From NCBI GenBank assembly GCA_964016885.1, contig OZ024741.1, positions 19,530,001 to 19,594,000 on the forward strand: 64,000 nt of DNA, given 5' to 3'. The notes beneath the pieces are model-generated. The model was not told where the DNA came from. It did not search any database and saw nothing but the letters and a program-made list of their open reading frames with translations. Positions 20,391 to 59,626 of this stretch are shown piece after piece; position 1 is the first letter of the stretch, and the number at the start of each line of letters is the position of its first letter. The translations under genes were made by a program, and so were the position numbers. The stretch is from Eledone cirrhosa. Lineage: Eukaryota.

Positions 20391-20612
20391 TAACGAAGGA
20401 AATGTGGTAAGGAACCAGGTGGACCATAACGCACCAAAGTACTCAATACTTAGGGTAGTAGAGTGGGTAATAGAAACAAGAAGGACCCCGACGGCTGAGC
20501 TCAAGCCTTTTCGACGGCTAATTCTGGACTAAATGAAAATTATTATTCATTTAGTCCAGACTTAGCCGTCGAAACGGCTTGAGCTCAGCCGTCGGGGTCC
20601 TACTCGTTCCTA
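20391..20612. mobile_element. Fold-back family F1, copy A, in (TA)n
   Basis: Starts TAACGAAGGAAATGTGGTAAGG; ~80-nt unpaired tail, then a hairpin with apex ~20541. Confidence 0.88.
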
Positions 20613-21566
20613 TATATATATATATGATAGGCTAAAAAACATAGCTTGTACTTATGCGAGATTGATAGATAATGAATTTTCATGGACACGAATCCCTCTC
20701 TCTCTCTCTCTCTCTCTCTACATATATATATACACACACACACACACACACACACACACACACACACACACACACACACACACATATATATATAGGTACA
20801 AAAAAAAAGATACACATACCTTCTTATTTTCATACAAAAATATTGACACGCACATAAACAAGCACACACACACATAAACACACAGACATACTTTCACACA
20901 CACACACACACTCAGCACACACACACACACACACACACACATACACACACACACACACACACACACACACACACACACACACACACACACACACACACAC
21001 ACACACACTCACCCATACTCACATGCAAACAGATGTAAACAAAAACAATATTCAATCTCTTGCAATAGTTCTGTGTTGAATTGTACAGATGCCAACAAAA
21101 GATATTTGCTCATCTTTCAGTAATTAACTCCAGATGAAAATATATTGTAAAACGATGTTATCATCTGTTATCAGTTAAACCTTATCTGATGACAGGACTT
21201 TATCAGATAAAAAGATTCCTTCCGATTGAATATAACACTAGCGTTGTTGTTATCTTGAAACTCAAGTACCAGTCTTTCATGCTCAAACACCGCCAATTCT
21301 GAAATAATTACCTGATCTACCTTCATATATCACTCGGTATGTTATAGATTATATTTAGAATTGAAGAAAGCTTCCACATCACTGACAAATTTGTATAACC
21401 CTTTGGGCTGGTTATATTTTCGACGATGGGCGTACGAACAATTTTATCTCAGGCGTAACTTCCGACTACAAAACGTAAGACTTTCAAACGAGACTCCAAC
21501 CGAACTCCTGACCACGAGACACGCTACTGATAGTCCACCGAGTACATTTCTTTAATCCCAAAAGGG

Positions 21567-21840
21567 TGTTAACCACAACACAAATATTCCAGTTAACCAC
21601 AACACAAATATACCAGTTAACCACAACACAAATATACCAGTTAACCGCAACACAAATATACCAGTTAACTACAACACAAATATACCAGTTAACCACAACA
21701 CAAATATACCAGATAAACACAACACAAGTATACCAGTTAACCAAAACACAAATATACCAGTTAACCACAACACAAATATACCAGTTAACCACAACACAAG
21801 TATACCAGTTAACCACAACACAAGTATACTAGTTTAACCA
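21567..21840. repeat. 24-bp minisatellite (CCAGTTAACCACAACACAAATATA)
   Basis: About 11 tandem units. Confidence 0.95.
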
Positions 21841-21915
21841 ACATATCGAGAAAAATCTGGAATATTCAAAACCTAAATCACTGCTATAGAGATTGGAGTC
21901 AGAGGATTTGTGGAC

Positions 21916-22422
21916 AAGACCAGCAGTCGTAAGACCAACAGCCGTAAAACCAGCAGTCATAAGACCAGCAGCTGTAAGACCAACAGTCGTAAGACCAGCA
22001 GCCGTAAGACCAGCAGTCGTAAGACCAGCAGTCGTAAGACCAGCAGCCGTAAGACCAGCAGCCGTAAGACCAGCAGCCGTAAGACCAGCAGCCGTAAGAC
22101 CAGCAGTCGTAAGATCAGCAGCCGTAAGACCAGCAGCCGTAAGACCAGCAGTCGTAAGACCAGCAGCCGTAAGACCAGCAGCCGTAAGACCAGCAGTCGT
22201 AAGATCAGCAGTCGTAAGATCAGCAATCGTAAGATCAGCAGTCGTAAGACCAGCAGTCGTAAGATCAGCAGTCGTAAGACCAGCAGTCGTAAGATCAGCA
22301 GTCGTAAGACCAGCAGTCGTAAGATCAGCAGTCGTAAGACCAGCAGTCGTAAGATCAGCAGTCGTAAGACCAGCAGTAGGAAGACCAGCAGTAGGAAGAC
22401 CAGCAGTCGTAAGACTAGCAGT
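21916..22422. repeat. 15-bp minisatellite (AGACCAGCAGTCGTA)
   Basis: About 33 tandem units with C/T variants. Confidence 0.95.
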
Positions 22423-23176
22423 CACCCATACAGGTATGTATGGGTGACTGCTGGTTTCCATAAACAACCTTGCCCGGACTTGTCCCTCGGAGGGTAACTT
22501 TCTAGGTGCAAATCTCATGGTCATTCGTATCCGAAGGGGGTCTTATATATATATAAATATATATATATATATATATATATATATATATATATATATATAT
22601 TTCAGAAACACCGAATATTCAAAGCGTTGTCAAACTAACAAATGTTTCTGCCGGCCTAAAATGTTTACCGTTGAGTTATTGTATAACTTAACCCGTAGGT
22701 ATCAATTCAGGATCGGTATCATCAGAGTTTATTAAAGGCTTCAATAATATTTTACATATAGCAACAGTTCATTACATTAATGTACTCATTAATTATTCAT
22801 CATGGTAATAATTTACAGAGGTTTGCAAGGAAGTTTTGAATTTTTTTTTAAATAACAAAGAAAAAAAAAACAATTGAAAAAAATCGTATACTGTTCAAGA
22901 ATGGTAATACTGAAGAGATGACTGTGAGAGTTAGAGAGAATATTATATTGAGTAATTACAGAGAATCTTATTTTGAAAGAAACGTATTTATATAACCATA
23001 AGTTTAACTACTCTAGTTAATATTATAACCATATATATATATATATATATATATATATATATATATATATATATATATATATATATATATAAATATATAT
23101 ATATATATATATATATATATATATATATATATATATATATATATATATATATATATATATATATATATATATATAT

Positions 23177-23735
23177 GGAGGAGGTTATAGTTCACTTGAA
23201 GCATTGTGTAATGAGGTATAAACGTTTGAATATGTATAATAAAGCCAAAACAATGCAGGTATGGACATAGAAAAAAGAATGCAATTGCAAAAGATATTGT
23301 TGACAATTCGTCTTTTACCTTAGATTTATTTTAAACGTCCTTAATTTTCGAGATAATATCTCTTCTTCAGAGGGAAATAAAGGTCTCAAACCAGCGTTCT
23401 AAATATCTTGCCAAGCCATGCTGACAGGAAATAGTATAGAGTATCTGTTCTATCTCTAATGTCAAAGAGTTAAAAACTTTTAACTATTTGACATTAGAGA
23501 TAGAACAGATACTCTATACTATTTCCTGTCAGCATGGCTTGGCAAGATATTTAGAACGCTGGTTTGAGACCTTTATTTCCCTCTGAAGAAGAGATATTAT
23601 CTCGAAAATTAAGGACGTTTAAAATAAATCTAAGGTAAAAGACGAATTGTCAACAATATCTTTTGCAATTGCATTCTTTTTTCTATGTCCATACCTGCAT
23701 TGTTTTGGCTTTATTATACATATTCAAACGTTTAT
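23177..23735. mobile_element. Asymmetric fold-back insert in (TA)n: ~260-bp arms, ~40-nt tail, hammerhead at 23580-23614
   Basis: Apex ~23477; cct CTGAAGA agagat att atctc GAAA at TA agg. Confidence 0.88.
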
Positions 23736-56940: not shown

Positions 56941-58319
56941 TAACATCAATAATACCGCTGGGCTCGAGGAGCTTATGAAGTCCACGGAAACAGATCAATA
57001 CATACAATACATACATATATACATACGTACATACACATACTCACATATACATAACACACGCACACACTTACATACATACATAGACACGTCACTCGTTCTG
57101 ATTGATCTACAAGATTCCAGACCTCATTCGCTTGCCGAGTGGGGTGGACCTCGTCAAATCAGACCAAGGAAACAAGGTTTCCTTTTGTCTTTCCATTGCT
57201 GATACTACCTACCGATTGCAATTCCTGGCAGAAATGAAATAAAGTGTCTTGCTCAAGGATATAACGCATCACCGTGTCCGAGAATTGAACTCTCTATCCA
57301 CTAAGCCACTTACGTATATACATACACACACATACATGTATGCATACATACACACATACACACAGTGGCGGACTGGGTCTAAAACTATTGGTTGCCAGGA
57401 GATAAAGGGGGCCCACCCACATATAGAATGCTATCATTTAATTTTTATAATGAATAAATAACATTTTCAAAAGTTACATAAATGAAAACAAAACAATGCA
57501 ATCAAATTTTTGCGGAAAAAATGTGTATTTTTTTTTACTAATTATAGTGTATATATATAGTGTATATATTACTGGCAGTATACAGTAATACTAAATGTTA
57601 ATACAGAATGTTATAATAAAATTTTTAAATAATAGTGAATATATAGTATATTGTATAGTATACTGTTATTTAGAGTAGAGTGTGCAGGCGATCGTTGTTA
57701 CCTCCTCCAATAAAAAATATAAACTACATTGCGAAATATACACATCCAGAGACTTACAATAAATGACCTTTGGCCTTTCACACTCTCTCAATATATATAG
57801 CTGGGAGTGTATGTGTGTGTACATGTACATGTGTATATATAGATTTATATATATGTATACATACATGTTTTCTACTTGTACAAAACTGATTTGGCGACTC
57901 ATTCTCCCTAGGGACTTTAGACTGAAGAACTGACCACTAATTGATTTTATATGTCTTTAACCCATTGATTTAAAAAAATGTATTTGACCAGCTGCTTCTG
58001 TGTATGTGTAAGTATATATATATATAAATGTAAGTATATATATATATATATATATATATATATATATATATATATATACGTGTGTGTGTGTGTGTGTGTG
58101 TGTGTGTGTGTGTGTGTGTGTATGTATGCATGCATGAATTATTACAGTAAGCCAGTGACTCCAACTGTTAGCACTATCATATATATTTGGTTTCTATTAA
58201 TTCCCCAGGGAATTGTTTGACCAAATGCTTTGTTTATCTATTTTAAAACTAATTTATTCTTTCTCTGAGACATTTGTTTAAAGATATTTGTTGAAAGCAA
58301 TGCATTGGACCCTAAAATA

Positions 58320-58585
58320 CTAGAGTGTGTTGGTATGGACATGTGATGCGCATGGAGGATGACCGCTGAGTAAAGAAATGCCAAGAAATCCCGGTGGAAG
58401 GAAGACGCAGTCGAGGAAGACCAGGAAAAACATGAACGGAGGTGGTGAGAACAGACCTCAGGTCACTGAAGCTCACGGAGGAGATGACAAAGGACCGTGA
58501 TGAATGGAGAGATGCTGTGCTTAATAAGGCCCGTCCCACCCTTACACGCAGGGAAAAGTGGACGTAAAATGATGATGACGATGGC
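58320..58585 (+). pseudogene. RTE LINE 3' fragment
   Basis: WYGHVMRMEDDR..VEGRRSRGRPGKT..DR..WR; degenerate GAT tail. Confidence 0.8.
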
Positions 58586-58809
58586 AAAGATATATTTATA
58601 TAATAGATTTTAAATGCTTAGAAAATAAGGGGAAGACCCTTAAAGATGGAAGAAGTATGCACACACACACACACACACGCACACACACACACACACACAC
58701 ACACACACGCACACACACACACACACACACACACACACACACACACACACACACACACACATATATATATATATATATAGGTCGAGTTTGGTCAGCAAAG
58801 ATTCTATAT

Positions 58810-58856
58810 ATTCCTGATGATTTCTAATGAATGAAACAGTTCTAGTCCTGTAGAAT
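58810..58856 (+). ncRNA. Type I hammerhead ribozyme
   Basis: attc CTGATGA tttc taat gaat GAAA cag ttctagtc ctg TA gaat; truncated relative at ~25117-25156. Confidence 0.78.
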
Positions 58857-59437
58857 CTCATCTATATATATATATATATATATATATATGTGTGTGCGTG
58901 TATTTAGTGAAGAGACAGAATTCCTCCCAGTGGGTCCACCTATTTCAACTAGATTTCTACAAGTAGTTTTAAGGGATTCATTTTCTTATTTTCTTTGAAA
59001 ATACTTTCGGAAATCACCTGAAAACATCTGGATTAAATCTCACTGGTGGTGAATACATTTGATTAAATCCCGTTTGCGGTGCTCCAGCATGACCGCGGTC
59101 AAATAACTGAAACCAATAAAATAACAGATAAATAAAAGAATGTAAATGGCTTCTAGCCCCAACCTGATATTAAAATATTCATAACAATCTAGGTTTTAAT
59201 GGTTACTGATGTAGCAAAGCATGACCCAGCTGTCAACTGTGTATTTATTATGTTAATAAATCTCTACCTAGGGAGCCACATACATATTTATATTTTAATA
59301 AGTGACCTACGGTTATTGTGTTAAGGCACGTGGCTTACTGGTTAGGCTGTTTGACGCGGGGTCGTGAGATGGTGAGTTCGACTCCAGCTTGAAAGAGATA
59401 TTTTATTTCATGTCGCTTCAGTTCATTTATATATATA

Positions 59438-59626
59438 TAACAAATGAATTGTGGTAAGGAACTAGATGGACCATAACGCACCAGAGTACTTAATACTTAG
59501 GGTAGTAGAGTGGGAAATAGGAAAAAGTATCACCCCGACGGCAGAGCTCAAGCCGTTTCGACGGCTATTTCTGTCAAGAAATAGCCGTCGAAACGTCTTG
59601 AGCTCTGCCACCGGTGTCATACTTTT
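59438..59626. mobile_element. Fold-back family F1, copy F (older)
   Basis: Same tail with more substitutions; apex ~59574. Confidence 0.82.

Follow-up and report, generated by a model that had tools for sequence, protein, structure and literature searches.

An inverted copy and a tail on one side only are known features of Penelope-like elements (PLEs), as described in the parts of PMC8557442 used here, where ribozyme function is called unclear. The origin of the tandem and inverted repeats with their one-sided tail, and the role of the hammerhead, are left open there and in the corresponding parts of PMC11167929. For Poseidon of Anolis carolinensis, studied in vitro, the latter article (Frangieh et al. 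2024) describes two adjacent internal starts of reverse transcription that bound the tail; uncleaved RNA is the main substrate, and no RNA-seq ends were found at the ribozyme cut. In Schistosoma mansoni, the Cercyon account (Cervera and de la Pena 2014, PMC4209133, in part) describes hammerhead pairs 100-700 bp apart on opposite strands, derived from truncated PLEs. Here we analyse a stretch of 64,000 nucleotides (nt) of Eledone cirrhosa (contig OZ024741.1), called the window, in whose own numbering all positions are given, and the family of six fold-back copies that it holds, called F1. These hairpins represent the smallest insertions made by an intact PLE of the Hydra clade. We consider it probable that a cut in (TA)n primes synthesis on one RNA from each of its two ends, that the two complementary DNAs (cDNAs) run off the 5' end of this RNA, and that they are then joined head to head. 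The turnaround is likely set by RNA 5' ends, either an initiator-like site marked by an extra G or the hammerhead cut, a point absent from the preliminary description of this DNA.

The F1 fold-backs and their parent element

Each of the six copies (Table 1) has (TA)n on both sides, an unpaired tail of 79-84 nt and paired arms of 54-97 nt; the short-arm end is common to all and the junction differs in each. The copies were found where the preliminary description had placed them when coordinates were re-derived with BLAST, which found no seventh copy in the window. Its constant ends, its tail of about 80 nt and its differing junctions were borne out, but the apex is not random, since its positions cluster tightly. 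Arms within the window copies differ by point changes. Copies and ends were counted genome-wide by exact sequence patterns. The proposed search for the tail gave 24,403 matches to a 35-nt pattern in the 3.0-Gb genome and none for the reversed control. A single tail copy turned up in 180 kb of continuous sequence taken from the neighbourhood and from unrelated places, and the window is therefore locally rich in F1. Ends numbered 12,870 in the forward (tail-less) and 9,749 in the tailed class, figures that indicate rough parity only because pattern stringency was unequal; the reverse count of tail-less ends was inflated by overlaps.

Several of the first 30 genome copies extend beyond the hairpin region into a 3' untranslated region (UTR) and a GIY-YIG/reverse transcriptase (RT) frame, and a protein search gave many places with a 784-codon open frame. 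Twenty stretches of 6-10 kb around such places yielded a 3,528-bp unit in perfect tandem, of which F1 is the pseudo-long terminal repeat (pLTR); intact, near-identical source units exist. In these units a 716-amino-acid open reading frame (ORF) begins 92 nt past the tail end, leaving a 5'UTR of 91 nt. Long copies tied to a PLE ORF, which the preliminary description had proposed to look for, are thus at hand, and its view of the hairpins as minimal PLE integration products agrees with them.

The 716-residue protein has YRDD at 348 and NVIY..YIG at 590-608, that is, an RT followed by a C-terminal GIY-YIG. It also carries RWR at 37 and DKT at 117 (the RWK-type motif, and DKG changed to DKT), CNCPDRSIC at 572 (a CxCX5C linker), CNLC at 670 and CKH at 698, the last two being the CxxC and CxH that flank the conserved E and N. 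The CX2-5CxxC linker and the CCHH motif are both absent from it, one Cys lying within the GIY-YIG core. Because RWR, DKT, CxCX5C, CxxC and CxH are present and CX2-5CxxC and CCHH are lacking, the F1 parent is, as judged from its sequence, a Hydra-clade PLE by the motif definition given in the clade section of PMC8557442; rows of that article's supplementary alignment are collinear with the F1 protein by eye. The element also inserts in (TA)n and has a pLTR hammerhead, with a variant core against the clade's canonical core, and its insertion units show the partial tandems, inverted 5'-truncated copy and tail on one end of PLEs. Pfam gave no significant match on the 716-residue ORF and a GIY-YIG match at E 0.069 on another copy. 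The protein has 2,050 full-length homologues, with 38-54% identity among the 120 listed.

Other classifications were considered. A Neptune or Nematis PLE was dropped after the motif check, the protein being without CX2-5CxxC and CCHH. A non-LTR retrozyme was rejected, as the six window copies are inverted monomers and not direct tandem units with a whole hammerhead. One array elsewhere does resemble a PLE-derived retrozyme: L243 (G000:C2:356029000-356033499) consists of seven tandem 299-bp F1 units, each with a whole hammerhead (stem II shortened), tail, 5'UTR and ORF start. In another array, of 4.5 units (L135+L136, G000:C1:91472500-91492499), the 5' end passes into a tandem repeat in which a 55-bp ORF piece occurs more than 55 times.

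Where the arms begin and where they turn

We mapped 24 long loci, 16 of them as fully resolved two-arm insertions; in the other eight, no partner was seen or the arm extended beyond the sequence at hand. In all 16, two arms meet head to head and their outer ends lie on (TA)n, one with a tail and the other without. Since in eight of them the arm without a tail is the one that extends further 5', up to 16 kb against 0.28 kb, it cannot have been copied from the tailed arm by folding back; the same holds for the longest window copy (23777), whose tail-less arm is the longer one. Short copies were examined in a tail-anchored census of 90 of the 100 listed genome places (one contig), the six window copies and bystander copies. 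Its 116 hits were reduced to 109 by dropping five failed alignments and two second views; the tailed arm was long in 14 and short in 95. A short partner was found automatically for 75 of these 95, seven arm ends being corrected by hand for internal deletions. A recurrent deletion between two short GACGGC repeats within the tailed arm was noted in L013, L068 and L069. The partner was tail-less in 73 pairs and tailed in two (L015 and L161, the only exceptions), that is, one tail per insertion in 73 of 75, when independent choice of sites would give one two-tailed insertion in three. The tail-less arm extends further 5' in 27 of the 75, and the arms are within 3 nt of symmetric in 28; the asymmetric cases, long and short, are in copies more than 99% identical to the intact unit. 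Junctions carry inserted bases in 40 pairs, 1-6 nt of microhomology in 25 and are blunt in 10, and all but two of the 75 differ from one another. The hairpins therefore look made anew, as the preliminary description had held against a miniature inverted-repeat transposable element (MITE); the latter was rejected because the interior is not constant, the tail is one-sided and sizes form a continuum to 16 kb.

Private variants were compared between arms. Those of insertion T2 show 0 mismatches in 1500 to each other and 13-27 to other insertions; the corresponding values are 2 against 16-25 for L145 and 0 against 7-18 for L146. The test is uninformative for short overlaps and weak for L133, L141, L143, L144 and L147. 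Moreover, a hypervariable barcode of 12-14 nt is the same in 52 of 67 arm pairs, compared with 18% of random pairs, and the misses are mostly offsets or point changes. One tail per insertion together with shared private variants suggests that a single RNA is primed at two places in its 5' pLTR.

The two end sites are fixed, internal and 79-80 nt apart, and the target is matched by TAT at both. The preliminary description had foreseen cDNA starts about 80 nt apart and head-to-head joining, and this part stands; it had taken one site for the true RNA 3' end, which it is not, since the tail continues into 5'UTR and ORF in tandem units and both priming sites are therefore internal. A small hairpin (4+4 bp stem, 2-nt bulge) lies 4-6 nt after each site: one opens the tail and its twin follows the tail end in tandem units. 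The twins differ by compensatory changes, the second being the minimum-energy fold and the first appearing only in longer context or in copy 23777. Plausibly, these hairpins may set the two start sites. In raw restriction-site-associated DNA sequencing (RAD-seq) reads of three other animals, (TA)n loose ends occur at both sites (8,666-12,175 and 2,887-3,356 reads) and strand-switch joints are present, a support that applies to the family and not to single loci. For a second subfamily, the six listed joints in these data lie at 647-656 and none beyond 656, which is the initiator A. A drop in read depth near the apex was left out of the evidence, as an AATT there is likely the library restriction site.

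We then considered where the arms stop. Positions are counted as u, the number of nt upstream of the tail-less end, with position 0 at the A of TYAGTC (u=60); TYAGTY is the initiator consensus. Short-arm ends fall at -3 to +6 of this A in 96 of 150 cases and at -7 to +16 in 124, with the mode at position 0. The apex and microhomology plot suggested earlier thus gave distinct junctions, as expected, and ends that are nonetheless concentrated at one base. Read-through templates have T or C before the initiator A in 34 of 34 cases. A purine stands there in 6,310 arms, and the first 100 listed comprise 87 G and 13 A; among the matches listed for neighbouring positions, G accounts for 16 of 100 one base further in and 13 of 100 one base further out. 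Of the 27,951 arms that extend as far as the initiator A, the extra G is carried by about 5,500. The extra base is present on both arms in 348 hairpins, against seven in the matching A control, and 20 loci among 50 listed with such a two-arm base represent at least five subfamilies and have the middle base in both orientations; hairpins with a shared apex are therefore not one lineage. At 26 inspected G junctions, the partner arm cannot supply the G in 14 and could in 12.

Rare insertions of another kind bear on the template. L210-L212, L214/L215 and L230 are short direct repeats in which synthesis jumped from the initiator end to RNA positions that lie 85-218 nt beyond the tail; no inverted arm was seen for L210 and L211. 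The templates therefore appear to start at the initiator and to run into 5'UTR and ORF, so that priming would occur in the 5' pLTR of the transcript. The extra G is likely the signature of a copied RNA cap, and the A the start of a capped RNA polymerase II (Pol II) transcript. An untemplated G at the transcript start is likewise found in L1 and SVA, where PMC3287187 attributes it, in the part concerned, to cap copying, and PMC2377424 describes an internal promoter with an initiator in Penelope.

A similar pattern is seen in F2, an unrelated tail-out fold-back family with one copy in the window, where the A of TYAGTT is the last base of each arm and is accompanied by an extra C/G. Genome-wide, the base before this A is G in 58, C in 23 and A in 19 of 100 listed; the control one base out has G in 19 of 100, and F2 templates have T or C at the extra-G position. 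Just past the TYAGTT A, a hammerhead-like motif seems to begin, its core being CAGAAGA. No parent ORF was found for F2; a candidate tandem, L313, proved to be a host duplication.

The second class of ends lies at the ribozyme. The longest window copy had been said to hold the 3' part of a type I hammerhead; a hammerhead is there, but the motif is complete and sits on the short arm. It has a UUGAAAA core at 23952-23958 (a U3-A8 variant), a long stem II, GAAA, stem III and a predicted cut after 24036, and 27 of 34 templates share UUGANAA with N7 free. Folded by free energy, the copy in 23777 does not surpass shuffled sequence (z -0.48), and the call therefore rests on the motif, the conservation of the core and the accumulation of arm ends where the cut is predicted. 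Rfam at E up to 1 gave no hammerhead match on F1 copies among the 150 of 237 matches listed. The predicted cut is the turning point of 248 hairpins, which fall into two barcode types; the control apex 2 nt shorter gave 26 and the one 3 nt longer gave none. The 50 listed include 17 direct joins (with a CG microhomology ambiguity), 14 with one added base, which is A or T in 13, and 10 with one arm 3 nt longer. Among 30 loci chosen for a changed base at the cut, 22 are true ends and eight are read-through point mutants; the partner also ends exactly at the cut in seven of the 22, compared with six of 150 ends near there overall. A looser coupling count at this site (10/22) and its Fisher value were not relied on. 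Hairpins that turn exactly at the predicted cut are evidence that the U3-A8 ribozyme may cleave template RNA in vivo. Since capped RNA is without the 5' half of the ribozyme, the cut-site class likely comes from read-through RNA.

A proposed route and its rivals

We propose that both ends of the (TA)n cut would prime reverse transcription on one element RNA, at the two fixed internal sites. This RNA would be a Pol II transcript from the pLTR promoter, capped at the initiator A, with the G as the copied cap. Priming in the 5' pLTR of such an mRNA would give products of 60 and 140 nt resembling retroviral strong-stop DNA, a short cDNA made from a tRNA primer near the RNA 5' end and not integrated. 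The trailing RT would displace the leading cDNA, and host end joining would link the two cDNA ends with insertions or short microhomology. The hammerhead would cut read-through RNA in vivo, the cleaved RNA also serving as template. The initiator is never the stopping point of long and tandem arms, which comprise up to 4.6 units and therefore need another template state, likely multi-unit read-through or circular RNA, if not seamless strand transfer. As a tentative generalization, which may well not hold, PLEs could prime both target ends within the 5' pLTR of their mRNA and first make a strong-stop DNA that is attached to the target and terminates at the cap; most events would abort at this point and be sealed as hairpins, and full-length or tandem copies would need a second template state. 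The latter might be strand transfer to the ribozyme-trimmed 3' end over the 41-nt redundancy, or a ribozyme-made circle copied by a rolling-circle mode.

Several observations weigh against double priming with run-off at RNA ends. In vitro, as PMC11167929 describes, the Poseidon start site shows no strand preference and no target homology. No partner was found automatically for 20 of the 95 short tailed arms, and the arm barcodes of L050 are truly discordant, which fits two RNAs. Two of the six window copies (20391 and 23777) pass the initiator and stand on the read-through side. Genome-wide, 19 of the 150 ends lie 1-4 nt beyond the A, so that the start is not unique or is blurred by matches in the partner arm. 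The extra G marks a minority of the arms that reach A; the 12 ambiguous G junctions could have drawn it from the partner arm, the frequent C-A-G apex may be an insertion copied from a template, and L209 is a read-through copy with G as a point variant. L039, L274 and L276 are mixed, one arm ending near the initiator and the other at the hammerhead cut. Finally, 34 loci were inspected in which a pLTR continues past the tail (all four G-starting matches and 30 of 170 T-starting ones); arms run far into the ORF at 27 of them and none of the 27 stops at the initiator. A simple model with one template does not account for this, and jumping of the RT at the cap with a constant probability was rejected on the same ground.

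Other explanations can be set against the same evidence. Double priming might occur without any role for a cap, if the RT stalled at RNA structure, namely where hammerhead stem II has its top, and then added a C that the template lacks. Many RTs add untemplated bases, the modal end lies within the 3' strand of the long stem II, and about half of the G junctions are ambiguous. A stall of this kind is nevertheless unlikely, for the G occurs at one base only in two unrelated families, each time at the A of TYAGTY, the base added at the hammerhead end is A or T in nearly all listed cases, and every one of the 27 ORF-spanning arms goes past the site. Palindromes are unstable, and long palindromic insertions could shrink by central deletion; alternatively, a few master hairpins could spread as MITEs do, with one apex type common to 348 copies. 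Deletion would neither add a G at one base nor stop at a ribozyme cut, and a few masters would not yield a shared apex that is found in five or more subfamilies and whose middle base occurs in either orientation inside one subfamily; with 73 of 75 junctions different, we regard both as extremely unlikely.

If two RNAs of a single source locus were used, each bound to its own subunit of an asymmetric dimer and primed at its own site, the overlap of the cDNAs would be explained without strand displacement, and so would the mixed-end insertions and L050; a dimer is predicted for Poseidon in PMC11167929. We find this improbable in view of the private variants common to both arms and of the arms that meet together at the rare hammerhead end (7/22 against 6/150 ends overall). 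That the cDNA from the tail site folds back and is copied as DNA, the copy being trimmed by the endonuclease at an internal TA, would suit the near-symmetric 28 of 75 short copies, and PMC8557442 ties the tail to endonuclease resolution. This is already contradicted for the asymmetric copies, where the tail-less arm has sequence missing from the tailed one (27 of 75 short, 8 of 16 long), and four of eight junctions of the most frequent type have their full-length arm on the tail-less side; folding back could hold for a subset and is very unlikely as the general route. An assembly or library artefact has next to no chance of being the explanation: the read support is at family level and not for the six loci, but the arms carry point differences and raw reads of three other animals contain both (TA)n ends and the strand-switch joints.

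Under the tentative generalization given above, the hammerhead would be a working part of the PLE cycle, and the positions of PLE transcript starts and ribozyme cuts would be preserved in these genomes as a fossil map. F1 copies yield base-exact predictions on a genome scale: each insertion end uses one of two priming sites, priming takes place in the 5' pLTR, the transcript has a capped start at a given base, and the ribozyme cleaves template RNA in vivo. As intact, near-identical source units exist, each step is directly testable with the existing in vitro assay. The extra-G signature could map the promoters of any PLE family from DNA alone. Moreover, tens of thousands of hairpins may supply double-stranded RNA for editing; an unusually high double-stranded RNA potential in octopus is described in PMC5625713.

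Neighbouring elements and comparison with described systems

Besides F1 and F2, the window contains other fold-backs, PLE fragments and a pair of LINE-like elements (Table 1). Canonical CUGANGA hammerhead cores were seen on both arms of the fold-backs at 5588, 7541 and 62281, and Rfam HH9 matches at 7816-7888, 8067-8139 and 8537-8609. The preliminary description was right that no ORF of the F1 family is visible in the window: tblastn assigns the pieces present to other related families.

Table 1. Features of the window in its own numbering; sense refers to the element.
Feature	Positions	Strand	Remarks
F1 copy	20391-20612		tailed arm 20391-~20541 (sense on -), tail-less arm ~20546-20612 (sense on +); 4 inserted bases at junction; initiator A overrun by 7-11 nt in both arms
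F1 copy, longest	23777-24054		tail-less arm ~55 nt beyond initiator A
Complete type I hammerhead motif	23947-24041	+	short arm of copy 23777
TYAGTC initiator-like motif	23994-23999	+	within stem II; A = 23996, candidate transcription start
F1 copy, opposite orientation to the others	34973-35166		tail 35087-35166; junction near initiator, 4-6 nt microhomology
80-nt tail between the two priming sites	35087-35166	+	
F1 copy	39777-39965		tail-less arm begins exactly at initiator A (39906)
F1 copy	55363-55550		both arms 9-10 nt short of initiator A; 3-4 inserted bases
F1 copy, more diverged	59438-59627		both arms 4-5 nt short of initiator A
F2, unrelated tail-out fold-back family	36865-37100		89-nt tail; apex C-A-G at 36937-36939
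Tail-out fold-backs of other families between (TA)n	5588-5982, 7541-8814, 11292-11535, 23176-23732, 62281-62660		
ORF fragments of at least 3 other related PLE families	9029-9595, 16860-18690, 41826-42053, 44597-45376		32-53% identity to F1 protein
LINE-like (long interspersed nuclear element) element, endonuclease-RT frame	3-3062 and 48346-53405		inverted, ~45 kb apart, 98-100% alike

In L1 twin priming, two target-primed cDNAs produce an inversion, their segments do not overlap, and they start at the poly(A) end; in F1, both cDNAs copy the same stretch. The family membership and the insertion architecture of F1 are of kinds already known. Like the Hydra clade as presented in the clade section of PMC8557442 (Hydra-1_Obim, Penelope-13_HM), F1 has a single RT-linker-GIY-YIG ORF with the clade motifs, a (TA)n target, a pLTR hammerhead, tandem and inverted 5'-truncated copies and a tail at one end. 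It is a different family from Hydra-1_Obim, with another hammerhead sequence and another protein (supplementary rows compared by eye), and it departs from that description of the clade in its unit of 3.5 kb (against less than 3 kb), its tail of 80 nt (against 30-40) and its U3-A8 core with a long stem II. That section does not mention run-off at a cap or at a ribozyme cut, and no such mechanism was found in the open-licence literature searched, older subscription papers on Penelope lying outside it. The U3-A8 core is shared with the Cercyon hammerheads of Schistosoma mansoni; most F1 copies stop inside the ribozyme, whereas the part of PMC4209133 that deals with the Cercyon pairs gives no mechanism for them. 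In Poseidon, as far as the portion of PMC11167929 cited above goes, the target is also AT-rich and both of its strands are cut and extended. The F1 sites differ in being used one per insertion end, with the target matched by TAT, and F1 genome copies record RNA 5' ends that include the ribozyme cut, where the RNA-seq in that portion showed none. Finally, non-LTR retrozymes are, in the part of bioRxiv 10.64898/2026.07.22.740005 used here, likewise pLTR-derived, non-autonomous PLE derivatives with a type I hammerhead; the six F1 copies of the window differ from them as inverted monomers, five of which are without a whole ribozyme.

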